Assembly (NCBI GenBank): GCA_046563655.1
Contig: CM102286.1
Location: forward strand, 11,408,001-11,472,000
Origin: Yuukianura sp. NJ FZ-2021
Lineage: Eukaryota
Length of the DNA: 64,000 nucleotides
Reading direction: 5' to 3'
Positions 720 to 62,304 of the stretch are shown one piece after another. How positions within the stretch are numbered: the first letter of the stretch is position 1; each line of letters begins with the position of its first letter. The position numbers were made by a program, and so were the translations under genes. Under the pieces are notes generated by a model that saw only the letters and a list, made by a program, of their open reading frames with translations, did not search any database and was not told where the DNA came from.

Positions 720-2946
720 TTAGTGGGCGTTTGCATTGAATGGGCGCTTAGAAGGCGGTATCAGATGAACTGGCAACGTTTCAGGTAAGTCGTGTCCATC
801 TAACTTCACACTGATTAAATGCAGCGCCAGAGCGAACTCATCATTGTCAAGCATTCCATCCTTGTCGACATCCGCCAGCTTCCAAACCTGCAATAAATGA
901 TAATAAAAATCGCAATGAAGCTTTGTTCAAGAGGTTTAAGCCGATTAAATTAAGAGATCCTTCAATTCCGTTTATCTCATCGCGGGAAGATGTGAAGACT
1001 TGATTGAATTTCGTTCAAAAACCTTACCTTTGCCAACACTGTGTTTGGTAACTTTGACTTTTGCATCTCCTGTTTTGCCGCAGCACCCGACACCTTTCCA
1101 TCGGGACCACAGAGGCTTTCGAACACCCCGTCGTATTTCTCCTTGTCTTTATGAACGATCCATTCGGATTCCCCGCGACCTGCCTCGGCTCCTTCGAATT
1201 GCTTGAATCCAAATGGTGTCGTGGTGTCCTGATGTCCGGAGAAAACTCCTCCCTTGACATTGGTGGTCCCCTTACTTGCTGAAGTTATGTCTTCTAGTGG
1301 TATTTTTGCCATCAACTTGGCAATATCCAAGGCCAACATGGAATCAACTGCTTCAATTAACTTCGGCTTCATGATGTTGAATTTGGTAAAGTCTTGGTTC
1401 ATAAGTTCCGCCTAGGAAAAATTACAAATCACATGAGACTTTGACGACTAGTGTTTCTATTTACATCTTTTGCGGTACAATGTTACTGCAAAGCATTTCC
1501 TCAGAAATCTGAGAATCGATATCATTTAGTATGTATTTTAGTGTTTAGTGATGTAGCAACCTGCATCTTCTTAATGTCGGGGAAGTCTCCCGATGATATT
1601 TGGTGTTCTCTTTGGATCTGCGTGTAAATCTGATCTAATCCCTTGATCAGATCTTTCTTCTTGGAATCCTTACCGAAAACTGACGGCATGTCTTTACGCA
1701 GGGTACTTATAATATAGGCATGTACCTGAAAAATAATAAAATCCATATCACCTTAATAACAAAATGTAAATCAAACCTTCCTTTGAGAAGGTTTACCTTT
1801 GCAAGCCTAGCCCGTTTGATCAAATCATTGAGCTTGCGTAGTGCCGCATTGCGTGGAAGTTGTGACAAGTCCTGGAAAAGATCCTGCTCCTCCGCTTCGA
1901 ATAACCTGGAAACAAAGTGCTTTTGTACTACTCATCTTATCTCGTGGTAGTATTTGTATTTCAGAATTTCGTTACGCACTTTCTGTTTGAATCGTATCTC
2001 AAGGGTTGATCCCAAAATGATCCTATGTAAACTCGAGCAACTTCCGGCGTCTGCAATACTTTTCCCAAAGACCACATCAATGCACCGTAAACACGCATCA
2101 ATTGCTGGTGATCCACCATGTCGGCCTGAAAAAAAAATGAGCAAATGCTGTATAATTCAAAACGTGCATTGGGTATTTAGATATTTACATAGTATTTAAG
2201 TTGTAATTTGGTTACAAGGAAAGTATCTTGTTAGTCTGTTTGTTTATAATCGGGTTTTAAGTTGAAAGTCGGTTAGGCTATTGTACCTTATTCAGAATAA
2301 TCCGGATTTTATCATCGTGCCCTTTCAGTGCTTCAATTGACCGACGAAATTCATCCGAAATATCTAACTTGTGAGCATCGAAGAGCAGTATAATCCTATC
2401 CACTCTCTCAGCAAACCATTCAAGGATTCCCGTGAAGTCGTACCCCCGATCAACCCTTTGCTTCTCACCGGAAAGAATTCCAGGAGTATCCACAATCGAA
2501 ATACCTTTCAGCACCTCCGAGTTCACCATAGAACACTGGAATCTGTTCAGGAATGCGTTTCCAAATTTTGAAAGAGGTCTGAACTGTTTCTTGGGGTCAA
2601 CCACCAAGGCGTTTCCAGGAACGATTCCGTCTTTCTCTCCATACATCACAGCAATAAAGCTATCCGTAGTTGGTTCGGGTCCTATTCGGATGCCTGGAAA
2701 GTCACGTTCCAGTAAATAACGGATGAACGTCGTCTTTCCAGTGGAATATTGTCCAACCAGCATAATCATCGGCTTCGCATCGAAGTCGGGATCATCCAAT
2801 GCTGGAGAATGGAAGTCATGGAAATTGTAAGCAGTCTCCAACGGCAGTAGTTTAGTTTTGTAAATGTGCCTAAGTTCACTGGCCACATTCTCGAAAACTT
2901 CGGCCGTTTTCCGTTTAGAATCATCATTGGTTAGCCAGCTGAACAT
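720..2946 (-). CDS. EHD1: EH domain-containing protein (EHD1/Past1). Exons: 2946-2287, 2125-1980, 1905-1797, 1725-1561, 1411-1028, 887-720
   Basis: MFSW start, P-loop [20 protein letters not shown], and a C-terminal EH domain ([24 protein letters not shown]). GT-AG junctions keep the frame. Confidence 0.96.
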
Positions 2947-5912
2947 TTTTCTCGGTTATCCTGTGGAAAACAAAATTCACAAATTATAATTCAAACATAT
3001 ACATACTCTCAATACAAAAAGTGATTGTGAAGAGGTATAGCGAAAGCAACACATATGTTCTTATGTCAAATTTCAAATATAAGTTGAGTAATCAATATTG
3101 AATAGTCGATACTGACAACGCCCCCCTCGGTTACATCCGCAGCCTTCCGTCGTAAGTTTTCTTTACACAAATAGGAGAAATTGGACTGCAATATGTCTTC
3201 AACACAAATATTATTCGTTTCTAAATATTGTCTACAGAATTTCAAAGGGCTTACAAATCAATGTGATGTTTACAATCTCCGTTTTCCAAGATTTCGTCCT
3301 TGGTTGGAATCCGGAACCGTATGGATGGAAAAAATTACTGAATGAGATAACACCAGAAAAAGGCGTGACTAATCGTCATTTCGTCATAAAAGCAGATACT
3401 GCCGTTGCCGTATAGCATTTACGGGGGTTTATGTTTCATTTATCTTTTTTTTCAACCGCAGCTTTACTGCTATGTCGCAGGCTTACCAGGGAAGTCTGTG
3501 ATCGTCTAACATAATCGGTGCATCGAAACTCTCTGACTCTTCCTCTTTGGAGTTAATTTAGGAAAGCGTTGTTGGCTCATTTCGGAGGGATAAGAATTTT
3601 CATTATTTTCCGAATTCTAAATTAATAGGATCAGGATGATGTTAAAATCCCTAACTTGTCGAAAGAGCTTTATGAAATGATTGGGTACACCACTGGGACG
3701 TAAAGTTTACTTCAACGACGTTGGAAGTTAAATTTGACTTCGTTCAAAGGGGGAAACTTTTTGCAGTTATGCGCATGTAGGTGTCTTTTCTCTACGGGCA
3801 AAGTGCAAGTGGATATTTGTAATGTAAATTCTATTTTTTTTATATGTAGGAATCATCGGCCGGCACATTCGGCTCGGCATCGGCTAGGATGGCGTTTCCT
3901 CCGAATGAAGTTGACTTCCCCTCGTCACTGCTTTTTAGCAGGATCCATCCCGTTCCAACTTCCACCTCTGCTTAAATCGTGGAGAATTGGAACGCGCTCA
4001 CCATGGTTCGGTTTCTAATTGCCAATTTTTATTTTGTTAATTAAATTATTTAACTTTTTATTACCGTTTACCGTATAGTAACGGCAAGAAATTAATAGAG
4101 AACAGTGTTTTGCTGGGCATAACATTCGGAAACGATCAAAATCGTTTTTGACATACTACAAACTTAATACAAACTAATTAGGTTGATTTTTTAACTTCAA
4201 GTAATTTGTCTGACATAATTTTTCACCAAAGTTTTACAGCTTTATAAGTCATAGCCAATTTTTTTTTTTGAAACTGAAACTTCAAAAAAAAAAGATGGTT
4301 CGCATAATTCGTTTAGTGTTATTAACATAGTGGCTCCCATATTTCTCAAAAAAATTTATTGCACTTTCTAAAAGTCCAAAAGAAAACAGTCGTTAAAGAT
4401 TAACATCAAGTTTCGCCGACGGAGTAAACGAATTGAGCTTCCGATTATCCGATTGTAGCACTGTTAAGGGTAAACAAAACTGTAGGAATTTGCTCAAATA
4501 TAAATAGAAAACGATTGTTGATTAATGACGTAAGATAGATGACGGATGAAATACATCCTTTGAATAACTATTTGCATTTAGATGTTAATCATTGTTCGAT
4601 ACGACCGACCGCGCTGGAAAGTATCATGTCGATAGTGATGTGACGTTCACAAATTTTGTCGAGCCGAAATTTTACATGTGTGGGAGTAAGTAAGTCCACT
4701 TCCTCTCCTTTCGGAAACTGAGACTACCCTCCTGTCCTGTCCTATCCTTACAAATGATCCGTGTCGCTGATAATTGATAACTCGGAATTCTTCCTTCACC
4801 GTTGTGCTAGTGTATATAGGTATAGGTAGTCCAGGTCATCAAGAAGATGGTCAAGTTAAGAGTTGTAAACATGTACAGATTGGAAGTCACTAGTTAGAAA
4901 CTGGGTTTACGGTTACTTAAGTTCCCATAGTTCAATTTCAATAGCTGAAAAAACTCCGAATTTGATTTTGGACAGATCTAGCCGCAACTGATTTCCCAAT
5001 TCAGTGAAAGGATTCGGTGTTGTTCAGTTTCCCCAGTCGGCCGGACCTCAGGAAGCGTACTGTATTCTTTCAGGCCTACGCAAGGAACGACATTACTACC
5101 ACCTTCGAGTCATGATATGGCGATGAATCTATGCCTGACCTTCCTTCAATTAAATTTTTACTACATAGAGCGCTGATGCTCGGGAACTAACGGGAACTTG
5201 CAATGGTATATAACAGATTTCCATACATTTACCTTCCATACATTTACCAAGCAAAACCAAACTTACAAGAGCTGTGTAATATTTTTTAGGTTTTTCTGTT
5301 TAGTTAATTTAGAGACTCCCATCATCACTGTCAATTACCAATCATCGTCGACAGGCGAGAAAGCAACGTAGTCAACGCATACCAACCTCTGTTGTTTTTG
5401 GGAAAGAATACTGCTGAAGTACGAGTAACTGAATACTAAATAGGATATCTTATACTTTAGAGGCAAACGTGGAGCACCTGACTGAACTGAAGGTACGTTA
5501 TTTTGAATTTTAACGTCTCACTCAATAGTTGGTAAATTGATTGGCAAATATTATCTATCCTCTTAATTCCAATTATTGATCCGCCCAGGTCTCAGCGCTT
5601 TGGTTAGATCAAAAAATAATCTAGTCATTAGCGGAACAACTTTCAATGGTCATTTTTTTTGGGTTGTCCATCCATGGGTTATGCTAGACAAAAAAAAATC
5701 AACTATAAATCAAACTAGCCAACTGTCGCAATTTGTTGGCTAAACATATGTAGTAAACCTTACATTTTTTAAATTACAGGATTTCTTGTGGAGTATCGTT
5801 AAATTGGGGTAAGCTATATAGCATCAACGAAAAGGTGAAGACACTACAGACTACTAACTGATACGAACACAACTGTTGTACCTTCGCGATCAGTTGACAA
5901 TTCGCCAGGACA

Positions 5913-11396: not shown

Positions 11397-12631
11397 TTAC
11401 ATTTCAATAATTGTCCGAATGGATTTGCCGTTGACCAACAATTCGACACCTTCGTTGATCTTGGACAATGGAAGCCTATGCGTCACCAGTTTCCCAGCTC
11501 CATCCAACCGTCCGTTCTCAATCTCCCGAATTAAAATGTCAATTCCGTCCCTAGCCTTGTAGCCACCGTACAAACCCCCGTTACCGTCTGACCCATCAGC
11601 AACTTCTCAGCCAGCATAGGAACTTGGACTCCCGGTTGATACAGTCCCACCACCACCAAAGTACCCCATGGGGCAAGCAACTTCTGCGCCTGTTCCAAAC
11701 ATTCCGGCGACCCCGTGCATTCAAATGCATAGTCCAATCCAGTTTGACCTTTCAACGCTTCCATGACATTTTCCGCTCCAATTTCCTTGGCATTGAGGGT
11801 GTCAGTTGCACCCAACTCCAGAGCGAGGTCCAGTTTGTGTTTGTGTTTGTCAATGGCAAAAATCTTGGCAGCACCGCCTGCTTTGCAACCGATAACAATG
11901 CACTGGCCGACGGCTCCCATTCCCCAGACGGCGCATGTACTCCCCTTTTCCACCTTGGCAAGTTTCATAGCACTTCCATAGCCAGTTGCAATGCAGCATC
12001 CCATCAGAGCAGCGACATCTAGTGGAATGGAATCCGGAACTTTGCAAACCATCGTTTCTTCCACCACTGCGTATTCCGCAAAAGCCCCACCAGTCATCGT
12101 CAGAAGGGGAGTTCCGTCTTCAACGAGCTTCACTCTAGAAGTTCCGTCCTTCCGGACCACCGACGTCTCCAGGTTCCCCGACATGCAGAAGTTGGTCATT
12201 GGTTTCCCTTTACAGAGGAGGCACTCGCTACACATTGGCATCCACAGCAGAATGACATGGTCACCCTGCTTGACCTTTGACACGCCTGACCCAACAGACT
12301 CAACGATTCCTGCTCCCTCGTGCCCAGGAATAACGAGACCTTCTATTCCTTTGAATTCTGTGAAAAATAACAATAACTGAAAGAATCTCATAAAATCTAA
12401 AAATGTTGGACGTTAGAAGAAATATTTTAGATGCATATAAATTAGAATTGCTTTACTTGCACCACCACGTTCAATTCCCTTTATAGAATACAAGTCAGAG
12501 CGGCATAGTCCAGTGGCCTTCATTTTGATCCGAACTTCTCCTGCCTTGGGCGGTTCAAAATTTACGTCCACCACTCGGAGGGGAGCGTCCTGAGAAAATA
12601 CGGCGGCGGCCTTTCCTTGGATAGTTGCCAT
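11397..12631 (-). CDS. Zinc-dependent alcohol dehydrogenase (MDR family). Exons 12631-12457 and 12357-11397, with an apparent 1-bp frameshift at 11575-11579
   Basis: GLCRSD, GHEGAG, structural-Zn CxxCxxC...C, GMGAVG. The C-terminus (LYGGYKARDGID...GKSIRTIIEM*) continues in another frame. Confidence 0.9.
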
Positions 12632-39271: not shown

Positions 39272-39540
39272 GGTAGCACGCCATTGTATCAATTGAATTG
39301 TATCAACTGCCATTGCATCAACTGAATTGTGTCAATTTGAATTGTATCAACTGGTCAATTGTATCAACGACTAATTGTATCAACGAGTGTAATGCTTAGT
39401 TCAGCTTAGGTTAGGTTAGGTTACGTTGGTTGATACAAGTAGCCGTTGACACAATTGAGCGTTGATACAATTCAAATTGACACAATTCAGTTGATGCAAT
39501 GGCAGTTGATACAATTCAATTGACACAATGGCATGGAACC
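39272..39540 (-). mobile_element. 269-bp foldback MITE with TTGTATCAA sub-repeats and central (TTAGG)n
   Basis: 8-bp TSD TATTAAGT. Near-identical reverse complement of 60111-60379. Confidence 0.92.
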
Positions 39541-40684: not shown

Positions 40685-41216
40685 AAAAATGTACTTGACC
40701 TTGACCTTTGTCCCGGAATTTGGCCACTTCCGATCAAACCAGAAACCGATTAGTCACCCCTGTACCATGTGAAGGTCATCTGCGAAGACAGGTTGAAAAT
40801 CGGTTCAGGGGTTCCTGAGTTATAGACGCTCGTAGAATGAGCGACGCCATTTTGCAACTTGCAGCGTCTATATCTCCAGAACCGTATGTCAAAGGTCAAG
40901 GTCACCTGCAGCAAAGTTGTTCCTCTCATTGAAATGAACAACTTTTGTGGAGGCCATTTTTCCAAATTCCGTCGAAAATGTACTTGACCTTGACCTTTGA
41001 CCCGGAAGTTGGCCACTTCCGGTCAAACCGGAAACAACTTGTTCACCCCTGGACCATGTGTAGTTCATCTGTGAAGACAGATTGAAAATCGGTCCAGCGG
41101 TTCCAGAGATATTGTGGCTAGTATAGTCGGACGGACAGACGGACGGACAGACGGACGGACAGACGGACGGACAGACGGACGGCCATTACGATCCCTATAA
41201 GTATCTGACGATACTT
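40685..41216 (-). mobile_element. HINE-like element with a family A 5' end and a family B-like body; truncated at the adjacent copy
   Basis: Ends in acgatccctataagtatctgacgatactt. Internal units resemble the reverse complement of 61490-61920. Confidence 0.7.
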
Positions 41217-44487: not shown

Positions 44488-44679
44488 TTCAAAATCAGGG
44501 TTCCGACCAAAATTTCCAGAGTTTGTTTTCAGAATTTGTTTCTGGAATGATGGTTTTAGCGAAACAACTCAGTCCTTTTAATAGGATTTGGTCCCGGGCA
44601 AACACACAAGTGTCGAAATCCGCCATTTTTAGAATTTCAATTCAAAGAAGTCTTTGTTTTGCCGCTTGGGATTTACGTA

Positions 44680-46338
44680 CAGTGGCGGCCAAAATTATTG
44701 GGACACCCAGTGTAAAAATTTTTAAACAACGATAACTTTTTAACGAAGTGTCATAATTAATAACTCGATACGTCATTTTATTCAGAAAATAGTTCTTTCC
44801 AATCTCCCAAGTTTTTAGAACTTGAAGTCAAGCGGTTTATTTTATGGAATTTTTTAAACTCAAAACGTCAAAATTCTCGCGGACAAAATTATTGGGACAG
44901 CTGGGGTTTTGGAGCGAAATCAACAGTTATTGGCATTAGTTTTCCATCGGTAAGTCACCTAACTTAATTTTTAGTACTTACTAACACTTGTAGTTAATTG
45001 TTGATTAGTTTTTCAGAGATGGTTGGCAATATCAAGGAAGTTCCAGGACCGATACGCGACCTAATCATTCAAGGTTGGGTTGGTGACGAAAATGGTACAA
45101 GATCAGTTCGTCAGCTGTCCGAATTGTACCACGTACCCAAGTCAACAGTACATAACATCATACAAAGGTACCTCAAGACCGGCCATGTCGAAAACAAAGT
45201 CGGAAGGGGCCGTAAACCAATTCTTACTGAGAGGGAAGTTCGCCTGATCACCAAGAAAGTGAAGCTGGACAATCGAGTAAGCGCCGTAGAACTGTCCAAA
45301 ACACTCAAAAGTGACCTTGACACCGAAGTCAGCCCCCGTACTGTTCAAAGAGTACTTTGCAATTAGAATTTGAGAGCTTTCAAGCCGTTGCGAAAACCGT
45401 TTGTGTCAAAGAAGAATGCAGCCAAGAGATTGAAGTTTGCAAAAGAACACGTTATGAAGCCGGTATCGTTTTGGGAAAAAATTTTATGGTCGGACGAGTC
45501 AAAGTTCAACGTTTTGGGGTCAGATGGACGAAAATATGTGCGAAGAGGTACTGGTGAAGCCTTAAAACCAAAGAACCTCAATGTGACTGTGAAACACGGA
45601 GGAGGCAGTGTCATGGTTTGGGGCTGCATGGCTTCAAACAGGGCTGAAACCTTGGAATTTATTAACGGAATTATGGATAAATTCGGCTCACTTCGTGTCA
45701 AGGTCACTTTTGAGTGTTTTGGACAGTTCTACGGCGCTTACTCGATTGTCCAGCTTCACTTTCTTGGTGATCAGGCGAACTTCCTACTCAGTAAGAATTG
45801 GTTTACGGCCCCTTCCGACTTTGTTTTCGACATGGCCGGTCTTGAGGTACCTTTGTATGATGTTATGTACTGTTGACTTGGGTACGTGGTACAATTCGGA
45901 CAGCTGACGAACTGATTTTGTACCATTTTCGTCACCAACCCAACCTTGAATGATTAGGTCGCGTATCGGTCCTGGAACTTCCTTGATATTGCCAACCATC
46001 TCTGAAAAACTAATCAACAATTAACTACAAGTGTTAGTAAGTACTAAAAATTAAGTTAGGTGACTTACCGATGGAAAACTAATGCCAATAACTGTTGATT
46101 TCGCTCCAAAACCCCAGCTGTCCCAATAATTTTGTCCGCGAGAATTTTGACGTTTTGAGTTTAAAAAATTCCATAAAATAAACCGCTTGACTTCAAGTTC
46201 TAAAAACTTGGGAGATTGGAAAGAACTATTTTCTGAATAAAATGACGTATCGAGTTATTAATTATGACACTTCGTTAAAAAGTTATCGTTGTTTAAAAAT
46301 TTTTACACTGGGTGTCCCAATAATTTTGGCCGCCACTG
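44680..46338. mobile_element. Palindromic Tc1-family element with two left arms (~655 bp each) and a defective transposase
   Basis: TA|CAGTGGCGGCC...GGCCGCCACTG|TA. Tc1 motifs GRGRKP, WSDESKF and KHGGGSVMVWG are present. Confidence 0.95.
45019..45684 (+). pseudogene. Truncated Tc1 transposase
   Basis: HTH region and first catalytic Asp are present. There is an in-frame TAG at 45364-45366, and the frame is cut before the D34E portion. Confidence 0.9.
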
Positions 46339-47093
46339 TACCCTTATTTCTTGAAAATCCTATATATTTTTACTCTTTTATAACTTTTACTTCGCAGTTG
46401 GAAACCGAAATGGTTTTTCCAACTAGTCACATGCCACAGCACTGTAAATTGACCCCAGGACACTGACTTATGAGTACTTGAAGGAAAAGGAAGTACAGGA
46501 ACCCTCTCTCGGCTAATGCAAGGAGAAGACGCTGCATCTACATTTCTGGTGGCAATGCCCTTATCACTGACACGATCTTAGATTTATGATAGTTTCGTCC
46601 AACGCTTTTACTTAATCAAAAGATCTTCACGCTACAAACTGAATGAGTAGAAAAAAAGACATTTCGTTTGGTTCCTGTGTAACTATAAGTAGAAACCTCC
46701 AAAATTTAAATTGGGTCTCTTCTAACTACAGGTTTTCAATCTGACACCACAGTTAGACGGTGTATCAAATTTGTTAGACGAAGAAGATTTCAATGATTCT
46801 AGATCGTAACGTTAGGTCAACGCCCAACTTCAAAACCCATTTCGGATTTCTCTCTGTCAAACGATGCCTTCATCTACAATCTATTCGTAACTTAACCAAG
46901 GCTCAACTAAAAACCAAAGATAATATTCCTTGTGGATCAACAACGCAGTAGCCGAAGCGCAGGCGCAAACATTTAAATGACATATATGTTTTATTTCATT
47001 TTTTTCCGGAATTTTTTTGTAAATCAATCGTCAGGGAAGTGTAAAAATCTGCTGGAGATAAGCACCAATGTATCCGATTTCCTTCTTAAATGT

Positions 47094-47466: not shown

Positions 47467-48375
47467 GATTCGGTTTTAGTTTTTAGAGAATCGTCTCAAC
47501 GCAATCCGAATTGAAAGTAGTGCGAGTTTCGGTGTTCTTTCTTCCTTCAAACTGTGAGTTCTAATAAACTTTTTTTTTTAAAATTCTTCGTTTTTAAAGC
47601 AAAATCAAACAAAGGAGTATAGGAGGTTGGAAATTTTGGACTTATTTTTAAAGGACCCGTCGCCGAGAACTCGGAGCTTTTTGAGAGTTAAAAAAACCCT
47701 GTGGACGATATTTTCTAAAACGTCCATTCAATTATAGTCGCAAAGGACTTCCCATCCTTAGTTTATATTTGGCTTATGAACAAAAGATATATTAAAATGA
47801 TTTTCCATTTCCAACGAAGGTTTCAGATATATGAAAAACCAGCCTTACGACTTTTCTTTGAAATTCTTTACTCAGAAAATTACACATAATTTCGTCAAAT
47901 AAAGTTTAACCTTTACCAGTATGCAATTGCAGTCACATTTTTTTTTAATTAAAAACATGAATTGACTTAATTAATATACGAATTGGTGGGTTAACCTAAG
48001 CATGTCCTTGACCATTCCAACTTTAACCTCCACAAAATTTCGTTGTTCAAGGTCCATACAAAGGCGTAAAGCGCATAACGTGTGAAGCTACACAGACCAA
48101 GAAATTGTGATGAATTAATTTTTAGTTTAAAAAAATCTCATATTAAATTTAACTGGTTTTGACATTGGGTAGGATTTTGCAAAAATTATTCCCAAAAACT
48201 TTCCGAATCCTAAGTAGAATTGTGCCAAGGAATTCATCACTTTGTATTAGGATTTCCCTGTTTAATCATGAGGATCATGTCATAAATGGGACTCGCTTCT
48301 AATTTTCGTGAAAATCTTTGAGCTTAGCGTAACGCGCGTGCAGTTATTCAAGGTCCAAAAACCACAACTTCAACA

Positions 48376-50487
48376 ATGAGTCTGAATTTTGAAGATATTT
48401 TGGAAAATACTGGTACGTCTGGAGGGAATACGCATTAATTTCTACTTGAATTTACGCATTTTTGAAACATCTTGCTTAAACTAAATGAGACTGGAATTTT
48501 TTGAAAAATTTTAGGCGGATTTGGAAAATTTCAATTTTTGGTGTTGGTAATCGTCCTCGGTTTCGAAATTCCCATCGCTTTTGTTGGATTTGTTCCGATT
48601 TTTACTGGAACACTTCCAGAGTATTGGTTATGTAATGGCGTTCAAATTGGAAAAATGGAAGCTTGTAACTGTAATGGCACACTAGCGGCTCCGGCCCCAT
48701 TTACTTCCGTTGTTGCAGAGGTTAGTTGAACTTACAAAACCAAATTTGAGCACATGATTTAATTTTTAAAAAAATTATTTTTGGTTTGATTTTTTCGCTA
48801 GTGGAACCTCGTGTGTGACTATGCATGGATTCCTGACTTTATTAATAGTGCTCAAATGATGGGAATGATCGTCGGAGTTTTGTCGGCTTCACAACTTTCT
48901 GATTGGTTAAAAAAATTTGATATTCATGTTCAATATTTAAAAACATTACTCCACTATTTCAATATTGTGAATGATATGATTGTTACTAGGTATGGCAGGA
49001 AGTACTGTACTTTTGGTTCCGCCGTATTTCTGGGACTCGGTTCGTTCATTTCCGTCGTAGCGCCATATGCCCTTGTTTATGCTATTGGACGTGTAATTTG
49101 TGGAGCTGCATTTGCTGCCCTTTTAAATCTAACCGGAATTTACGCCATGGAGTTCATGCCAGTGAATAGGAGAGCGTTGTGCGGATGCGCAGGACCGTAT
49201 GGATGGGCTACCATGTCACTCGCAATTATTGCCTACTTTGTTAGACCATGGCGAACTTTGTTTTGGATCACAACCTCACCTCTACTGGTTTTTTGTCCAC
49301 TTCTGCTAATGTAAAAAAAAGTTTAGGTAATTTTAAAATATTAACAAGTTTTGTTTAAAAAATGATTTTTATAAGATTCATGCCAGAGAGTCCAAGAATT
49401 CTTATGCGTCAAGGAAGATTTGAAGAAGCAGCAAAATCAATCAATGTCATTGCGAAAATCAATGGCTGCCAAGAAGTCGGCATAGACGTGATACGCCAAG
49501 TTGCCGAAAACGAAAAGAGCAACTCCGTTGACAATCAACTATCTTGCATTGATTTGTTTCGGCAAAGTGACCTTCGGAAGAAAACATTATGTTTTTCATC
49601 CATTCTCTTTTCTTGGGCTATGCTCTACTTTGGCATTTTTTTCAACATCAAGAACCTTCCAGGAAATATTTACGTAAGCGCAGTATGCTTGGGCGTTTCT
49701 GACGTAGTTGGTTTTCCTGCAGCGTCTCTCATCATGGACAGGTAAATGAATAAGCGACTTTGACGTCTTGTTTTGTGTTCATCCAGCAAAAATTAACTAA
49801 ATTTTGTGTTTTCTTTTAATGATGAGCAGGTTTGGACGAAGCAAGTCAGTAGTTCTGACCATGTCGCTTGCAGCAAGCGTCATGGTGATTTTGGCGGGAC
49901 TTCAACTAATTCTAGAACTACCGTCTTTGCCAATTGTTGTCCTCGTGCTATGTACCGCCGCTAAATTTTTTATGGCCATGGCACGAAGTGTTACCAAATG
50001 TTTCGTTGGAGAATCGTATCCTACTGACATTCGAGCTATTGGTATTCGAAATTACAAAAAATACACGATATACGTCGTCAGTCACAAGTTGGGAAAAAAA
50101 TATACAATGGTAATGCTGGGTATTGGTTTTCAGCGGGTGCATTCATTGCCATTCCATCATCAACAGGAGCCGCGCTGTCACCTCAAGTCGCTTTTGTTGG
50201 TACAGGTAAGTTCAACAGCTTCATGTTTTCCACTTTTTAGATGTTTTGATTTTATAATACGGATTTTGATTAAAACATTTTTTTCAACAGTTGCACCCTC
50301 AGTGCCGTTCTTTGTGTTTGCTGCAATTGGAATCAGTGGATCTATCTTCTCCCTATTCATTACTGAAACCTCAGGAAAGCCATTACAAGACTCAATTGCA
50401 CGGAAGCTGAGTCGACGCATTAGCATCATGACATCAGTGTTTTCGCCAACTAAGGAAGACCAGAAGGAAAGCGTCTTGAACAACTAG
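48376..50487 (+). CDS. SLC22 organic cation transporter (MFS), multi-exon
   Basis: FEDILENT|GGFGKFQ, SVVAE|WNLVCD, SDWYGRK, PESPR, ESYPTDIR, ETSGKPL. Confidence 0.92.
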
Positions 50488-51875
50488 AATTTTCCGAGGA
50501 CGTTAAATTTCCAAAAAGATTGAATATTTAACATTTAAAATTTCCAAAAGTGAATCACTTTTCGAATTTTGCGAATCAAATAGCCTTTAAATAAGCAATT
50601 GGTATTCGGAATATTAACATAGTTTTGGAACTTACTGTTGAACAATTCGTGATTTTGAACGCATGGCTTAAAATCCTCTGATTGTAGAGGCAATTCCTTT
50701 GCAATTTCAATGTGAGACTCAAGTCATATTGTATTTGATACGGAAAAGTTCCAATAAACTTTCATTATGCTTTCACTAATGTGTTTATTCCAGTTTAAAG
50801 GAGGACGTTTCTGCAGAGGCGATTTTCCGATTCATGCTGCCAAGTATGAATCGGAAAATTTTAATCATTTTATTATCGTCGTTTCTAAATGTTCGGAATG
50901 CCACAATCGTGTATTGGTTGAATTATGATTGGTTTTTAAAGAGAATATACTCAGCAATAAAAGCAGCGCTTACGTGATTCTTTTTCGACAAATGTGATTT
51001 GTTCACCGGTCAAAACTGGGACGACTGCTTAGAACTAATTTTTTCCAGACTGCAATCGGCACAACCAAAGATGGCACAAATTAATTGAGCATGTGCGTGT
51101 TTAGGAATTGGCGTCATTAGGAACTGATTTACTGAAACGGTTATGCTCTAGCTAACTACTTCAAATTTGCTTAACAATTATTAGCTGACAGTTAAGTTTT
51201 AGTATTATAGCCACTTCGTTAACGTTGGTTGTCAACACTTTTTCCAGACAAATCTGGTTGTGATTGTGAACCAAATAAGTCAGCTTATTCTTATGGAAAT
51301 TAAGTACTGCTCAATGGGCAATCTTTAGAAAACATTCTATTAGCTTTTCCACCACTATAATTGTTATCGTCAAACGTCAATTCCGAATTCAGAATTCAAA
51401 TCTGGATGGCTATTTGTTCATGTTGTTGCAAAGCTTTATGAAAATTTAATTCTAGAACATTGCCCTCTAAACTAACATACCCTTGCATATGATGTAATTG
51501 CTTAGAGAAACTACGCATGCGCTGCCGTTGTGTGTCCGATAACAATTTGTCGATCTACAAGTAGTACTTAACTAATGAAATATTAATGAGCACTGATGGA
51601 TAATTATGGGCGATGATGGCTTCCTAGAATGCCAGTTGAAATCGAAGCACCTAAAGTCGTCGATTCAGAATACAAATTGCTCCTGCTTCTGGAAAGTTTT
51701 AAATAAATTTTGAACTTTTTAACAAAGCGCAAGTTTTGCCGTTGGATGCTGAATTGCCAGACGGCATTTATTCGCTCTACAGTCAACAACAAAAACTTGT
51801 TTATATAAAAAAAATTCGCGAACTTGAAAAAAGCAATTTGGAACTAGCGTTTTGCCCAACCACCCATAAGTTACC

Positions 51876-54800
51876 ATGGTTTTGAGCATTCTTGATCCGC
51901 ACGACTACGCCGCCGATAAGGTCATGGCCAACCTCACGACACATTCGCACAACGTGACTACGGCTGAGGGCGGGTTTCTGTCAGGTCGTTCACCGTTTCT
52001 TTTCAATCCGAAGTCACCGCTTCCAACTTTCATCATCCAACTTCTGATCATCATCTGCATGTCACGAGTGGTCAAATTCATTCTTACTCCCATCAAACAA
52101 CCGAGTGTCATCAGTGAAATCATCAGCGGAATTCTACTTGGACCAACCGTATTGGGACATGTGCCTGGTTTTATGGAGACTGTTTTTCCGCCAGCATCAC
52201 TCCCGTTCCTTGGACTCGTTTCCAACTTTGGGCTCGTTCTGTTCCTGTTTCTGGTTGGGCTGGAACTGGATCCGCGCATGCTCAGGAAATCAGTGAAGAA
52301 GAGCCTAGCCATCTCCCTGGCTGGAATGATGCTGCCATTTTCATTGGGAATGGCCACAAGCTACGCTCTATACGTGTGGGTAGAGCACCCGTCACATACT
52401 GCCTCATTTACAACGTACTTCCTGTTCCTTGGAGTGGCCATGGCAATAACGGCTTTCCCTGTCCTGGCTCGTATTCTGACGGAACTTGACCTTCTGAAAA
52501 CAAAAGTCGGAGGAATAACTGTTTCCGCAGCGGTAAGTTTACAATTCGAATAAGGAACGCATCGGCACTGGACCTATTCCATGGCGTTTTAATTTAGCAA
52601 CCATAAAAATCATCCAGTTTTTCATAGCAATTACAACCGAGGGAAGTGCATTGACATAATTTCTCTAAAAGTGTAAATGCTGATGCTTCTGTTTAGGCCG
52701 TTGATGACGCTACGTCGTGGTGTCTTCTGGCGCTTGTTATCAGCCTCATCAATGCTGGTTCTGGAATGGTGGCTCTTTATGTGTTTCTGATCGGATTGGG
52801 CTACTCGTTGTTCCTCATTCTGGGCGTGCGTCCTCTGTACATTTGGGCTCTTCGCAGAAGCGGAGCATTCCAGAGTGAACCCAGTCAGTTGGTCATGTTC
52901 CTCACGCTGAGTCTGGTCTTCATCAGTGCTTTTATCACGGACGCCATTGGGATACATGCCATTTTTGGTGGTAAGGAATAAACTTATTGTTAATTGTGAC
53001 CGTAGGCATATTGTAGAAAAAAAACTCCTGTATCGACGAATTTTACACCGGCTTTGAAATTGAAAGAAAAATCCGACGTTTCATTATAGTATGCAAAATC
53101 AGTCCAAATAACGATAAAATAATAGCTTGGTTGAAGCTAATATAATATTTCAATTAACCTTCGTTCGTAATTAAATTAATGCTCAAGTACTTCCAATAAC
53201 AAAATGTTTTGTGACCAGGTTTTCTGGCTGGAATTATTATGCCGCATGAAGCTGGTTTTGCGTACCACGTAACATCAAAACTGGAGGATATCGTGAGCGT
53301 TCTGTTTCTCCCACTGTACTTTGCATTGTCTGGACTCAAGACGCAAATTGGCACTTTAGATGATGCGGTCAGTTGGGGTATGGTCGTCCTTGTCATTTTC
53401 GTTGCCTGTTTTGGTAAAATTTGCGGGTGCACCATAGCTGCAAGAGCATCGAAGATGAACTGGCGTGAATCCTTCACCGTTGGAGTTCTCATGAACTGCA
53501 AGGGGCTGGTTGAACTGATCGTCCTCAATCTTGGATACGATGCAAAAGTCATATCAGAGAAAACATTTGCTATCATGGTAAAATTCGAAGGCTCTACTAC
53601 ATAAATCTACATAAATATAACAGTTAATTAAACCGCTGCTTTTTGGCGTTTTTAATTAGGTTATCATGGCACTTGTCACGACGTTCCTAACGGTCCCGTT
53701 GGTAAATTATATTTATCCGCCAAAATATCACGACAAATCAGAAGATGCCTACAATATAAAACATCCAACAGAAACGCAATTACCATTGGAACCCAGCATC
53801 CTCGTTTCCGTCAATAAAATTGAGCAAGTACCTTCTGTTTTGAGTGTAATTGACCTCTTGGAGTCACGCTACAAGATACAAGGGTCAGAAACTCCGAAGG
53901 TTCATGATCACATAGCCTGTATCCCTGTTCCTCACAAAAACCTCAAAGATGCTAAGCAGAGTTCCAGGACCAAACTGGTAGTTAACGCCTTGCGACTTAT
54001 TGAAATTACTGAGCGTGACTCGTCTGTCATGCTGCAGACAAGCTCCGAAGCCTTGCGCGATGACCCAGTAATGAAGATGCTGCAAACATTCTGCGAAATT
54101 ACGTCACTTGATATTCGCGGCTTTATACGTGTCGTTACCATGCAAAACTTTGCTGACACATTGGCAAACACAGCTGTTGAGGTCAACGCGTCCTACATCA
54201 TTGTGCCATGGGCTGGAAGTGGGTCCCTTGTCGACGACATGGCGTCGCCGGTTCAACAACTTTTCCTAGAAATGCGCAGACAACTAACCTTGACAACGCC
54301 TGTCCAACACGCTAATTTTATTCAGGATTTGATGAACACTGTTCAGCAATCGGCAGTCCTTATTCTAGTGGACCGTGGACTCGAGATTACCAATGCAAGG
54401 GACAAGATTGAGCGCTTGGTACCCTACTACCAGCGCATTTTTCTTCCATTCTTCGGCGGAGTTGACGACCGTGCTGCTTTGGATATTGTGCTCGGAATGG
54501 CTAGCTGTAATGTCATGATTAATGTCATTCGGTTCAAACCGGCACAGTCGACCAGGTCCAACGAGTCAGATTTGGCCTGTGTTGGAAGCGAAACGCATAT
54601 CTTGGGTTTTCCCGAGTGGAATGCTCCTCTGGGCACACCAGATTCTATGGACGACGAGCTACTGCATCAATATTTCGGAAGTACAGAAGCCCGGTCGTGC
54701 TACACAAATGTATCCTACATGGAAGTGGAATCCGGCACTCCGCACTCAAGCATGTTGCGATACACGGCTGACTTAACTACGCGTGACCTGATTGTAGTGG

Positions 54801-54952
54801 GAAAGGGAATGTCAAGTTTCTGGGGCGCAAGCTCGGCCCGCGGTGGGGATGTGGAAAGAAGAAAGGCTTTGGGAGACACGGCTGAAGCAATTATGACATC
54901 TCCATGCTCCGCCAGCCTACTTGTTGTTCAGGGAAAGAAAATAAAGACATAG
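51876..54952 (+). CDS. CPA2-family K+(Na+)/H+ antiporter of the fungal Kha1/plant CHX type. Exons 51876-52532, 52698-52970, 53219-53577, 53661-54952
   Basis: QPSVISEIISGILLGPT, FLFLVGLELD, AITAFPVLARILTEL, AAAVDDATSW, GIHAIFGGFLAG, LMNCKGLVELIVLNLG, and a CHX-type tail with PFFGGVDDRAAL and DLIVVG. Confidence 0.93.
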
Positions 54953-55685
54953 AGCCCTTTAACTTCACATTATGTAGTCGAAATTACGCTTGGTAAAGAG
55001 TTTGTTTGAATTCTGTACGATTACGATATATGTCATTGCTGATTAAACACGTCTGATTAACATAACATTATAAATCCTAGAATAAAATCCGATTAGTGAC
55101 ATATTTGTAAAGGCTGTCAAAAAAATTTTTATGCGGTTGGCATAGTGATAGTTTTATGTTCTGGCCATGCAAATGAGCTTAATCTAAGCCACTCCTCCAT
55201 GTCTCGGAAAAACTCCCCATCGATGTTGTTTCCCGCCGAAAGTTTGTTTCGGTTAAGAAGTTAGCGCGGCAAATAAAAGTCAACCGACGCTTTTTCTTTG
55301 CTTCTTGGCTATCAGTTTTGCTCTGCTGTTTTCTAGTAAAAGTTCACTAGTTAAACACTAAATATTATTGAATTAAGTTGCCGTACGACAATTAAAAAGT
55401 GATCTGTACGTGAATTGAGCGAGAATAACTTCAATTAAGGTGAGTGAGCCACTTCTATTGTTTTCTAATTCAGTTATTGGTACTACTGCATTGTGAGAGG
55501 GGATTTATGTCGCAAAACGAAAAAAGTTATTTGCTAATGGCTACTATTTTATTTTGTTTTGGCAGTTAAGGTATGCCTGTCCATTACTCGGAAGAGCAGC
55601 GCCTTTGCATAATTAATCTTCGGTTGGAGTACAAAGATGAAACCAGTACCGAGCTCATGCACAAATATTTTTTAATATTTTTTTA

Positions 55686-55847
55686 CCGCCAAGACCTGCC
55701 ACTGCGTTGGACTTAATGCGACGAATTGATGATTTTTTTCGTGTGCATGTTACGCCTGAAAAACTCAGAAATGTAAGAGACGATTTTCGTAAACGTTTAC
55801 AACTTTGTCTTTTGGAAAATGGGAGTCATTTTGAATATTTAAAATAA
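55686..55847 (+). pseudogene. C-terminal relic of a Tc1/mariner-superfamily transposase
   Basis: Manual translation PPRPATALDLMRRID...RNVRDDFRKRLQLCLLENGSHFEYLK* matches the typical RL..C...NG.HFE terminus. Confidence 0.65.
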
Positions 55848-57265
55848 TCTGCTTGCTACCCCTCCATATTCTGCATATTTTTTTTCCATTTCCATGTGTT
55901 TCTTGGTCAAATGTCAATGTAAAGCCGATTACTGTGGTTTACAATTTGTTATTTTAAGGCAATAAATTCACCTTTACAATATCCGTAAAGCTTAATTAAT
56001 AATTAATATTTCAAAACTAATGTTTTAATACAACTTCTGGTAGGCGCAACACTCCACTGAATCTAACTTTCCGACAGAATGAACGAGTATTTAGGTTGGG
56101 TTAAGCTATAGTGGCCGTCATTTAATCCGCACAGTGTAAGCATCCGTGATTTTTAGTGGCTACAACGGGTGGTGGCTACTCTATGTCAACTTTCGTTGCC
56201 GCTTTATGTTAGGTAAAAGTGGCAAAATTTCAGATGCCACTCAGGTGTAGCCATTATTGTAGTGACTAAAATAGCGGGATGCCTACACTGTGCGGCTACA
56301 ATGACGATCGTTAATCCTTACGGCGACCAGTATTTCCGAACCGAGAGGGGGAGTTGTTCCGAGACATGGAGGAGTGGCTTAGATGAAGCTCATTTGCATG
56401 GCCAGAACATAAAACTATCACATACTACTTTATACATTTTTCTCCTTTACTTACCGGGCTAGGTTAAAGCTAACAATCAAAGGTAACAATGAGTAGTAAA
56501 CTGCAAATTCTTTAACTCGGGATAATAATATTTAACTGGAGATAACGTCTGCAAAGGCGGTGACAAGGTGATAGCTAAAACAAAAAATGTAGCTACTCAT
56601 TGACCTAAACTACTTGTGTAGTGGTAGTTTGTTGGGTAGTCAGAGGTTATGTGTATGTCATTCGGAATTTTTTTTTCTACATAATTGGACTAGATACCTT
56701 CAATACAACTAGGTAACTTAAGAATACAAATAAGAAAAGCTTTACCTAGGTGTATATTTTTATCTGGTGATGTTTTTGGGAATGATTTCCCCCCATACGT
56801 TTGTCGTGTCCGACATGGAACCGCAATCAGCTTTTTATTCCTACCCTACTATTCAATGTAACTTTGAATTACGGTAGTAGATTATATTTATGTACAATAA
56901 TCTGGGAATTTAATATATTATGTACATAATATGTTTATAGTGGTTGGATTGGAAAGGCACACTGCTTTTCTTTCAAACTTACTTTCTTGAATACAATTAT
57001 GGGTGCCCATGGCTAAAGGCATTGGCGGAGTGTCCAAGTTCAACTCCTACCACGACTTCCAAAAAACAAAAACAAAAATATTTGTCTCGATGGTTGGGTT
57101 CTTATTTTCAGTGTTCTGTTTAGTTAGTTCTTTAGCTGATTGAGAGGTAAATTTTTTTTATATCATTCTCATTCATGTTATCTTGAAGTTAAATGTCTGG
57201 CGATCTACGATTGCTAGTCTTCAATTTCTCTGAAGGTGGTGTTCAAGATCACGGCGAAGAAGAGG

Positions 57266-59652
<2,387 letters not shown>

Positions 59653-59890
59653 CACCTTCTTCTGCTTTAAAATCTTTACGCATTACGTAACTAATTCTTA
59701 TGTTGCTGCTAAAATATATAAATGCGATACTACTATAACATATGTACTGAGAGAGGGTCAAGAACCCAGATTAAGCTTTCCGAAAATCGTGGGGATTCCC
59801 AGTTTCGTCGAAGTAAACAGTGTAAAATACGTTTTATTATGTCGTTGTACTTGAATGATCTTGATATCTACACCTCATTCTCTAAATACT

Positions 59891-60002
59891 AAACTAAAAA
59901 CCTCAATCCTTTCTCCATTTCTTGTCGTGGGTCTCGGTGAGGCTTCGTCTATGGCCGCACTACATTGAAAAGAAATGGAGAAAGGTTTGAGGTTTTTAGT
60001 TT
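59891..60002. repeat. Near-perfect ~33-bp inverted repeat downstream of the STK11 stop
   Basis: aaactaaaaacctcaatcctttctccatttctt / aagaaatggagaaaggtttgaggtttttagttt, one mismatch. Confidence 0.85.
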
Positions 60003-60110
60003 CTAATTCAGAGAACGTGCTGTAATACTAAAGCTTTGGAGTAGTAAGTAACCGTAGATCTACTACTACTTTATGAAGCAGAAGCCAGAACCCAGACCTA
60101 TACAATACAC

Positions 60111-60379
60111 GGTTCCATGCCATTGTATCAATTCAATTGTATCAACTGCCATTGCATCAACTGAATTGTGCCAATTTGAATTGTATCAACGCTCAATTGT
60201 GTCAACGGCTACTTGTATCAACCAACGTAACGTAACCTAACCTAAGCTAAATTAAGCATTACACTCGTTGATACAATTAGTCGTTGATACAATTGACCAG
60301 TTGATACAATTCTAGTTGATACAATTAAGTTGAGGCAATTGCAGTTGATACAATTCAATTGATACAATGGCGTGCTACC
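60111..60379 (+). mobile_element. 269-bp foldback MITE, same family as 39272-39540
   Basis: 8-bp TSD CAATACAC, ends GGTTCC...GCTACC, central taacctaacctaa. Confidence 0.92.
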
Positions 60380-61392
60380 CAATACACTACTAGTCAATAA
60401 ACGGTTGTAAACCGTATCTAAACGTTAGTGACGAAATATTGACTGACGTTTGAGCCGGTAATTTTAGGCATCATAGACGCACGGCACTGGGGAATAGAAG
60501 CGTTAAAAACGTTTGAAACACGTTGGGAACCAATCCTAGTACATCAACTTTACGCAGATGTAGTACTAGAACCAGAAATCTAGATCATCGCCATTATCCA
60601 TGCGGTCTACGAATTTAGCTAAAATTTTATCTTTAAAGTTTTATAGTCTTCTAGCCTGCTTTCATTCTTTGTTGTTGCTTTTTTTTTTTATTTACGCATA
60701 ATGCTTTACGCTGTTACAGAATTCATTCATTGACGCCTTTATTTTCAGAGTTATCTTTATGCATTCCAATTTCAGATTAAGCTTCAGTAAGCATTGGCGT
60801 AAATGATCTATGGATGCTTCGTTATATTTGTTCAACCTCAAAACTTCAACCCTTAGAATTTGGATCCTCTTTTGCTGCTAGTATTGACGCTGCCTTGTAG
60901 TTCACAGGTCCATAGACATACAGCTGGCGATAGTCTTCGTCGGCATAGTCCAAGTCTACTGTAGTTGGCCGATATGGCTAGAAATATCAAGATACACATT
61001 AGGCTAGAATACTTACGAAACCCGAAAACGTACAACCGAATGTACTTTTAGAGGAGTATTCAATCGGTGCTAATCTATCAGGCAAATGTCTGTTTACAAA
61101 AAAATTAATAAAACAACGCGTCATTTAATTATATTAATTATGAGCAACAATCATTTAAGAGAGTTAATTGCCCGAAAGCTTGGGTCTTTTTTTTTCAATA
61201 AAATTAGATTCCACAAATGGTGTATATCCGAAAAATGCAAACTAAATCATTTACGATATTTGATTCGTTAAATCAAAACGAGAACTGTGTTAGTTTTGTT
61301 GTTACCAAAACGTAAGCATTTGTTTTTGAACAAGGGTAATACATTTATTCTACCAAACACTTTTGGTCAATCGGGGTAATTTCTCACTTATT

Positions 61393-62304
61393 AAGTAGCG
61401 AAAGTATGAGCTACTTTATGTTTTTCCCCGAGTCTGTCTGTCTGTCTGTCCGTCCGTCCGTCCGTCTGTCCGTCCGTCTGCTGGTCAAGCTAGCTCTGGA
61501 ACCGCTGGACCAATTTTCAATCTGTCTTTACAGATGAACTTGCCATGGTCTGGGGGTGTACAATCGGTGACTCGTTTGACCGGAGGTAGACCCCTTAAGG
61601 GTCAAAGGTCAAGGTCAAATAAATTTTTGACAGAAATCGAGAAAATGACCTCTACAAAAGTTGTTCATCTCATCGAACTGAACAACTTTTGTATAGGTGA
61701 CCTTGACCTTTGACCTGGGGTTCTGGAGATATAGACCTTAGAAGTTGCATAATGGGGTCGCTCTTGCTATTCGCGTCTATAACTCCAGAACCACTGGAGC
61801 GATTTTCAATCTGTCTTCACATTTCTACTTCACATATTCCAGGGATGTCTAATCAGTATCCAGCTTGACCGGATGTTGTCCAGGTCCGGGTCAAAGGTCA
61901 AGGTCAAGTACTTTTTTGACGGAATCAAATAATGACCTCTACAAAAGTTGTTCATCCCATTGTGGTGAACAACTTTTGTTAAGGTGACCTTGACCTTTGA
62001 CCTACGGTTCCAGAGATACTGACAATTTAAGTTTCGAAATGGCGCCCCTCGTCCTACTCAGGAAAGTATGACATACTTTGTGTTTTCCTCCGAGTCTGTC
62101 TGTCTGTCTGTCGGCCTGTCTGTCTGTCTGCACTAGAACTAACTATACCCTCGACACCATTGGACCGATTTGCAATCTGGCTTGCAAATCAGTTTATCAT
62201 AGCCTGGGGGTGATTAATGCGGCTCCGGTTTGACCGGAAGTCGACAATTTCCGGGTTGTCACTAGCTTCCTTTCGCTACTTACGTACGGCGTTTACAACG
62301 GTTT
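61393..62304 (+). mobile_element. HINE/DINE-1-like element, family B
   Basis: Sub-TIR AAGTAGCGAAAG / CTTTCGCTACTT, GTCT/GTCC microsatellite, internal ~300-bp repeated units, and a repeated 5' module near 62063. Confidence 0.75.

Follow-up and report, generated by a model that had tools for sequence, protein, structure and literature searches.

A Kha1-type antiporter gene of probable fungal origin, near Entomophthoromycotina, in springtail DNA

This report concerns a gene for a cation/proton antiporter of the CPA2 superfamily, located at positions 51876-54952 (+ strand) of a 64,000-nucleotide stretch of contig CM102286.1 (assembly GCA_046563655.1, Yuukianura sp. NJ FZ-2021), the whole of which is hereafter called the window. 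This Kha1-type gene is considered likely to have entered the springtail (Collembola) lineage by transfer from a fungus near Entomophthoromycotina, soil-dwelling fungi of which some are pathogens of arthropods. A fungus-to-animal transfer had been proposed in a preliminary description of the stretch, and the proposal now has the support of phylogenetic trees (support values 99.8-100), of approximately unbiased (AU) tests (p 0.002 and 0.040) and of physical linkage to the animal gene STK11. The transferred gene would have been integrated between native animal genes, with three spliceosomal introns, and would have remained intact under purifying selection. The structure, family, tree position, linkage and C-terminal fold of the gene come from the analyses themselves, whereas we infer the donor, the timing and the expression.

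Gene structure and predicted protein

The antiporter gene is intact and consists of four exons with 860 codons and a stop codon, giving a spliced coding sequence of 2583 nt with no internal stops. The stop-to-stop frames underlying the exons are 51870-52553, 52697-52981, 53215-53604 and 53660-54952. All three introns (164, 248 and 82 nt) have GT..AG boundaries, with 5' ends reading GTAAG or GTAAA, and no in-frame ATG precedes the one at 51876, which lies in the context ACCATGG. The parts of the gene are the following:

51876..52532, + strand: exon 1, 219 codons; N-terminus and first transmembrane (TM) helices; PF00999 positions 6-142, E 1.6e-20
52533..52696, + strand: intron 1, 164 nt; GTAAGT..TTTAG; phase 0; GC 0.37
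52697..52970, + strand: exon 2; TM helices, starting at the Asp-Asp motif; PF00999 positions 145-234, E 4.9e-08
52971..53218, + strand: intron 2, 248 nt; GTAAGG..CCAG; phase 1; GC 0.30
53219..53577, + strand: exon 3; last TM helices and conserved Lys; PF00999 positions 236-353, E 7.6e-20
53578..53659, + strand: intron 3, 82 nt; GTAAAA..TTAG; phase 0; GC 0.29
53660..54952, + strand: exon 4, 430 codons and TAG; last helix and C-terminal domain, probably of the tandem universal stress protein (USP)-like, CHX17 type
55081..55086, + strand: AATAAA, candidate polyadenylation signal read from the sequence, about 130 nt past the stop codon

The Pfam family PF00999 (Na_H_Exchanger) matches exons 1-3 at consecutive profile positions, 6-353 of 375, with scores of 73.8, 32.7 and 71.5 bits for exons 1, 2 and 3 (cutoff 26.2). 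These matches far exceed chance, and their consecutive tiling provides independent confirmation of the splice model. The intact four-exon CPA2 gene of the preliminary description was borne out in its coordinates and exon count, and the four motifs quoted there are all present in the translations. Intron 3 contains a 13-nt insertion/deletion polymorphism at 53593, seen in contigs of the sequencing runs X1, X2 and X5.

The closest solved structure by sequence is NapA of Thermus thermophilus (4bwz, 5bz2, 5bz3), a CPA2 Na+/H+ antiporter. A family profile matched NapA (4bwz) with an E-value of 9e-36 over the whole membrane domain and KefC weakly, and no NHA2 or TMCO3 chain of the PDB was matched at E <=0.01; exon 2 alone gave no PDB match at E <=1. 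The conserved Lys of exon 3 aligns with a Lys of the NapA chain 5bz2. In NapA, the acidic motif lies in TM5 and the Lys in a later helix. NapA differs from the window protein in being bacterial and in being without a C-terminal USP-like domain, and its ion selectivity is probably different.

The ion-binding motif of helix 5 is Asp-Asp (DD) in the window protein. The same motif is found in homologs from Entomophthoro-, Kickxello-, Zoopago-, Glomero- and Blastocladiomycota, whereas Kha1 proteins of Dikarya (including those named Kha1p) and the sole plant row aligned (Dillenia) carry Asn-Asp (ND), and those of Mortierellomycotina carry Gly-Asp. Moreover, the stretch flanking the motif is identical between the window protein and Neoconidiobolus. 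By its sequence, the window protein is thus assigned to a DD-type early-fungal subgroup, without the ND of Dikarya Kha1 and plant CHX. NapA also carries the DD motif. As DD in NapA and NhaA goes with electrogenic exchange, the motif hints, by analogy, at electrogenic exchange in the window protein.

Exon 4 alone matched no significant Pfam family. An AlphaFold2 model built from 59 aligned sequences (predicted local distance difference test score 80.6, predicted template modelling score 0.80) comprises two alpha/beta domains, and the best Foldseek matches of this model were tandem universal stress proteins (E 7e-10 to 1e-8), among them 3loq, Rv2623 (3cis), UspE, TTHA0350 and 3ab7. C-terminal regulatory domains of cation-chloride cotransporters were also matched. 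Atlas features agreed with CHX17_2nd/CHX17_C clusters (0.94 for exon 4; 0.91-0.94 overall). The modelled fold thus indicates that exon 4 encodes a tandem USP-like domain of the CHX17 type.

By analogy with these relatives, the protein would be a K+(Na+)/H+ exchanger with a membrane domain of the NhaA/NapA fold, regulated by a cytosolic tandem USP-like domain. The yeast Kha1 protein functions in K+ and pH homeostasis and is located in the Golgi. The exchanger would similarly serve K+/pH homeostasis, probably at endomembranes, as yeast Kha1 and AtCHX17 do. The K+ preference, the transported ions and the physiological role, including the K+/pH or osmotic regulation suggested in the preliminary description, are all proposed by analogy.

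Fungal relatives and phylogenetic position

The protein encoded by exon 1 was used as a search query, and the best 120 of 7402 matches were considered, 110 of them with organism names. Fungi accounted for 105 of the named rows, the remainder being four plant-labelled sequences and one labelled as a nematode, with no arthropods among the 110. The top named matches in this set were Conidiobolus (67%), Neoconidiobolus (66% and 70%), Entomophthora (65%) and Massospora (65%), followed by Kickxellomycotina and Dimargaris at about 60% and by other fungi at 50-58%; no NHA (SLC9B) or TMCO3 protein occurred among these best 120. A search with exon 4, restricted to longer proteins at an E-value of 0.001, gave 11 matches, and all eight with names were fungi, the best being Neoconidiobolus thromboides and Conidiobolus coronatus. 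Over its full length, the spliced protein is 53.0% identical to the environmental sequence P0001, 51.9% to Neoconidiobolus, 47.1% to C. coronatus, 40.7% to Rhizophagus and 35-39% to Dikarya. Several of the full-length fungal relatives (35-53% identity) bear the name K(+)/H(+) antiporter.

When 1.84 billion representatives were searched exhaustively with exon 4 in HMMER, 549 matches reached E <=0.001. The nearest were short fragments, 46-66% identical (P0012, P0013, P0014, P0016 and P0018), which originate from metagenome or run assemblies. An organism was given for three of 10 of the nearest proteins, and all three were fungi (Glomus, Geosiphon and Dimargaris).

These relatives allow comparison with known systems. 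The Kha1 proteins of Entomophthoromycotina (N. thromboides, C. coronatus, Entomophthora muscae and Massospora cicadina) share the two-part architecture of the window protein and fall with it in one clade in all trees, and those of Neoconidiobolus and C. coronatus align with it from end to end at 47-52%. However, unlike fungal Kha1, the window gene stands in an animal genome among animal genes, on a separate long branch. Plant CHX proteins of the AtCHX17 type share the PF00999 membrane domain and the CHX17-type C-terminal domain, are 33-37% identical to the window protein and take an outgroup position in the tree. The animal proteins NHA1/NHA2 (SLC9B) and TMCO3 belong to the same superfamily as the window protein. 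The parts of an earlier survey drawn on here distinguish the NHA/TMCO3 clade from the CHX/KHA1 clade, report no metazoan genes in the CHX/KHA1/NhaS4 clade and a single KHA1 in fungi, and describe complementation of yeast kha1 by CHX17 (PMC3355601). The assignment of the gene to the fungal Kha1/plant CHX type rather than to metazoan NHA/TMCO3, made in the preliminary description, held up in the full-length alignment to fungal proteins at 35-53%.

Three trees were computed with IQ-TREE, with branch support from the Shimodaira-Hasegawa-like approximate likelihood ratio test (SH-aLRT). The first was a quick tree of 53 rows and 890 columns under LG+C20+F+G4. The second had 35 rows under LG+F+G4, and the third had 39 rows and 838 columns under LG+F+G4, rooted on five plant CHX units that were cut out of three fused plant models. 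For the 35-row set, 18 of the 53 rows were dropped for speed, these being long branches, near-duplicates or fragments: Plectus, Dimargaris cr2, P0162, P0015, Sporobolomyces, Furculomyces, Lipomyces, Auricularia, Glomus cerebriforme, Linnemannia, Allomyces arb2, Melanopsichium, Aspergillus rambellii, Ramicandelaber, Spinellus, Coemansia spiralis, Entrophospora and Dissophora.

The window protein groups with P0012 and P0013 in the 53-row tree (support 98), within a seven-row window clade that also contains P0014, P0016, P0001 and P0003 (SH-aLRT 100). Together with five Entomophthoromycotina proteins and two unlabelled sequences resembling C. coronatus, this clade forms a 14-row clade, again with SH-aLRT 100. 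The other rows follow fungal taxonomy, falling into Kickxellomycotina, Zoopagomycotina, Blastocladiomycota, Mortierellomycotina, Glomeromycotina and Dikarya. In the 35-row tree, the window clade received 100/100 and the split of window clade plus Entomophthoromycotina from the rest 99.8/100; the same split received 99.9 in the 39-row tree, where the plant root joins Allomyces (95.1), in agreement with the species tree. Every named sequence on the window side of the split is from Entomophthoromycotina. The order inside this group is weakly supported (26-38 SH-aLRT), and the finest placement allowed for the window clade is as sister to, or within, Entomophthoromycotina. The branch of the window clade measures 0.35-0.41, and paths to P0001 and P0003 in the 53-row tree amount to about 1.1 substitutions per site.

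Two odd labels occur among the homologs. P0330, labelled as the nematode Plectus sambesii, is of Kha1 type with 54% identity in exon 1, and lies in the 53-row tree on a very long branch near Allomyces, apart from the window clade; it could represent a separate transfer or contamination of the Plectus assembly. P0339, labelled as the tree Carpinus fangiana, is of Kha1 type and stands among ascomycete-like rows, and is probably fungal contamination within a plant assembly.

Vertical inheritance was addressed with AU tests in IQ-TREE (LG+F+G4), in which all fungi were constrained to be monophyletic with the window clade excluded. With five plant outgroup units the constraint was rejected (log-likelihood difference 34.4, p-AU 0.002), and with one plant outgroup the difference was 27.9 (p-AU 0.040); in the constrained best tree of the latter test, the plant root merely shifted beside Entomophthoromycotina. 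The maximum-likelihood (ML) phylogeny suggested as a check in the preliminary description supports the fungal affinity of the gene, through both the support of the split and the rejection of the vertical constraint.

A metagenome scan with exon 4 alone yielded 66 pattern matches, among which there were 0 relatives. The same kind of scan with the family alignment found one locus, L001, a metagenome contig of 1761 nt that is the source of P0012. L001 contains the last part of exon 3 (89% amino-acid identity), then an intron (112 nt, GT..AG) with the position and phase of intron 3 of the window gene, and then exon 4 (59%). Nonsynonymous divergence (dN) between the two genes amounts to 0.08 for the membrane part and about 0.3 for the C-terminal part, and synonymous divergence (dS) is saturated. 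The dN/dS comparison serves qualitatively only, as the Nei-Gojobori (NG86) estimate was not computable for exon 4 and the ML estimate of dS was about 21. Low dN with saturated dS points to an old divergence under constraint, which is strong on the membrane part. In the frames of P0014 and P0016, unrelated residues appear at the start or end inside what is a continuous exon in the window, which suggests extra introns in these two sequences and an intron content that varies within the window clade.

Integration into the host genome

The window is animal DNA, most likely from a springtail. An exon of EHD at 2278-2955 (- strand, 225 residues) shares 90% identity with Orchesella cincta and 89% with Folsomia candida, compared with 79-86% with other named arthropods and 91-95% with three unlabelled sequences; the host is thus most likely a springtail other than O. 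cincta or F. candida. Besides EHD, the window encodes PP2A-B56, an EAAT-type transporter, a GMC oxidoreductase, a CRAL-TRIO protein, an ionotropic glutamate receptor (ANF_receptor and Lig_chan) and remnants of Tc1-like transposases; of these, EHD, PP2A-B56 and the glutamate receptor are clearly of animal type. The features next to the antiporter gene are the following:

48505..50487, + strand: upstream neighbour, multi-exon transporter of the major facilitator superfamily (MFS), SLC22-like; Pfam Sugar_tr/MFS_1; SLC22A6 weak, E 8e-4
55145..56421, no strand assigned: high-copy element of 1277 nt, about 190 nt past the gene; terminal inverted repeats of 77 nt (55145-55221 and 56345-56421), 96% complementary
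57218..59700, + strand: downstream neighbour, multi-exon STK11/LKB1 kinase; Pkinase; human STK11

The preliminary description had placed the antiporter between SLC22 and STK11. The downstream half of this statement is firm, as the E-value of the exon at 58098-58352 (+ strand) is 2.1e-33 against human STK11 and only 6e-09 against the next kinase family. The upstream gene is only weakly matched to SLC22A6; SLC22 is a plausible identity, not firmly shown, and 'SLC22-like' is the safer name.

The stretch is present in five DNA sequencing runs, of which four share one sample and the fifth (X5) belongs to another study; four of the five were compared over 47500-60500. Contig 18 of run X3 (7898 nt, depth 29.6) covers 51015-52541, 52618-55143 and then 56422-59992, joining the whole antiporter gene and its 3' flank to STK11 on one independently assembled molecule. 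The gene and its flanks are covered to equal depth in X1-X3; in X1 the depth is 165-360 on the gene and 145-330 on the flanks, and in X3 about 25-32 throughout. X5 also contains fragments of all three genes (MFS, antiporter and STK11), at 3-5x. Repeats on the two sides of the gene belong to shared families, with 39272-39540 matching 60111-60379 at 96% and 40685-41111 matching 61491-61917 at 79%. GC content at third codon positions (GC3) is 0.51 in the antiporter gene and 0.47 in pooled host exons, and the introns of the gene have 29-37% GC. Given the linking contig, the even depth, the shared repeats and the host-like GC3, it is very unlikely that the locus is a chimera of fungal and animal DNA. 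The preliminary description had named a chimeric assembly, visible in read coverage and linkage, as what would overturn the transfer; none was found. Its argument that shared repeats speak against contamination was also sustained by the families flanking the gene.

The element at 55145-56421 adds to this picture of the locus. Contigs of X1 and X3 join 55143 directly to 56422, skipping 1278 nt, and the element has a depth 5-30 times that of its flanks. It is thus a polymorphic, high-copy, non-autonomous DNA transposon of the host, missing from another haplotype.

Three further observations were made in the window. In comparisons of X3 with the window, the MFS gene and the antiporter show approximately 4-7% differences (88/1704, 46/616, 64/1527 and 114/2526 letters) and STK11 0.4% (15/3571), and the shift falls at the transposon insertion site; on account of this coincidence, 55143/56422 looks like the boundary of a divergent and a near-identical haplotype block. 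At 44677-46341, two arms of 647 nt, 100% complementary and 371 nt apart, carry fragments of a helix-turn-helix transposase of the Tc1/mariner type on both strands, and this is a palindromic, rearranged Tc1-like element. An uninterrupted frame of 293 codons with ADH_N and ADH_zinc_N domains lies at 11531-12412 (- strand), in a window where most genes consist of short exons.

Alternative explanations and significance

Several points weigh against a transfer from near Entomophthoromycotina into springtails. The springtail assignment from the window sequence depends on a single marker gene, EHD, and the DNA runs that provide the linkage probably share the assembly's own sample. Splicing and expression of the gene are predictions from DNA, and exon 4 is without a Pfam match of its own. 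In the phylogeny, the AU rejection with a single plant outgroup is marginal (p 0.040), and both AU tests were made under LG+F+G4 rather than a site-heterogeneous model. The window clade stands as sister to those Entomophthoromycotina that were sampled, without robust nesting among them, and its six other members are unlabelled environmental sequences that could be unsampled fungi. Finally, no ortholog from the annotated springtails F. candida or O. cincta was found in protein searches or in the supplements of those genome papers, which suggests that the gene is not general in Collembola. In two supplement files of the F. candida genome paper, the terms antiporter, exchanger, PF00999, Conidiobolus and KHA1 occurred 0 times, and the O. 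cincta supplements, one file excepted, contained only NHX-type exchangers and oxalate/formate antiporters, with no Kha1-type protein.

Three other explanations must be set against the transfer. Under vertical inheritance, a Kha1/CHX gene of the opisthokont ancestor would have been kept in a few animals, including springtails, and lost elsewhere. The depth of the window clade, with its long paths to P0001 and P0003, and the existence of the nematode-labelled homolog P0330 would fit such a history, as would the constrained tree with one plant outgroup, in which placing the fungi together costs only 27.9 log-likelihood units. Nevertheless, the constraint is rejected with five plant units, and the window clade joins one fungal subphylum at 99.8-100 in a tree that otherwise follows fungal taxonomy. 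Arthropods are missing from the 110 named rows (best 120 of 7402), the Plectus sequence stands apart from the window clade, and very many independent losses would be needed for a clade from which Metazoa are reported absent, as stated in the portion of the survey used here (PMC3355601). Vertical inheritance is thus regarded as highly improbable. An assembly artefact, in which springtail sequence became fused to a contaminant contig, for example of a fungus that had infected the animal or been eaten by it, would account for the fact that the closest named relatives are fungi living with or on arthropods, and the runs come mostly from one sample. This explanation is scarcely credible given that the gene, its 3' flank and STK11 lie together on a separately assembled contig of 7898 nt, that depth is even in three runs, and that X5 of the second study has all three genes at similarly low depth. 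High-copy host repeats lie on both sides and adjoin the gene, GC3 is near that of host exons, and the closest named fungus is only 52% identical.

The transfer may also have been real with another donor, such as an unsampled zoopagomycete or a eukaryote outside the fungi to which the gene had already passed, or may have been followed by movement between soil animals. The position of the window clade as sister to the sampled Entomophthoromycotina, on a branch of 0.35-0.41 and not nested among them, leaves room for this, and the remaining clade members are unlabelled, with intron content that varies in P0014 and P0016. However, the named sequences across the 99.8-100 split are all from Entomophthoromycotina, which are also favoured by the highest identities and the identical stretch around the motif, and a different donor is accordingly judged unlikely. 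A transfer from a fungus near Entomophthoromycotina into the springtail lineage is therefore preferred. Collembola are listed among the hosts infected by Entomophthoromycotina in the part of a recent account that was drawn on (PMC10386553), and such infection would have brought donor and recipient into physical contact.

Transfer of fungal genes to springtails is already known to be frequent. According to the portion of the F. candida study drawn on here, that genome contains 809 foreign genes, 32.8% of them from fungi and 330 common to O. cincta (PMC5490193). As fungal transfer is known to be common in springtails, the present case is less surprising and the general picture is unchanged; what is unusual is the cargo, a polytopic ion transporter from a family not otherwise known in animals. 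The known springtail foreign genes described there likewise bear introns, are linked to native genes and are in many cases fungal, but they encode mainly carbohydrate-active and secondary-metabolite enzymes, in contrast to the ion transporter found here (PMC5490193). Within the collection of papers that was searched, none combined Collembola, horizontal transfer and an antiporter, and nothing relevant appeared on KHA1, horizontal transfer and arthropods.

A wider and more speculative idea, which is held to be doubtful though conceivable, is that all seven members of the window clade are animal. They would then constitute an ancient, hitherto unrecognised family of DD-type K+/H+ exchangers in soil microarthropods, derived from an early transfer from an entomophthoralean pathogen, inherited and diversified since, and co-opted for ion and water balance. 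If so, the exchanger may have a role in ion and water balance, for example in the ventral tube or gut of springtails, and the family would form a third animal CPA2 lineage beside NHA and TMCO3.

With this probable transfer, the foreign genes of springtails would come to include an ion transporter, and the evidence points to a fungal group that infects springtails on the donor side. If the gene is expressed, it would provide a Kha1/CHX-type exchanger in an animal, from a family reported absent from Metazoa. With its introns, regulation and targeting, it would also offer a tractable case for the domestication of a transferred polytopic membrane protein.

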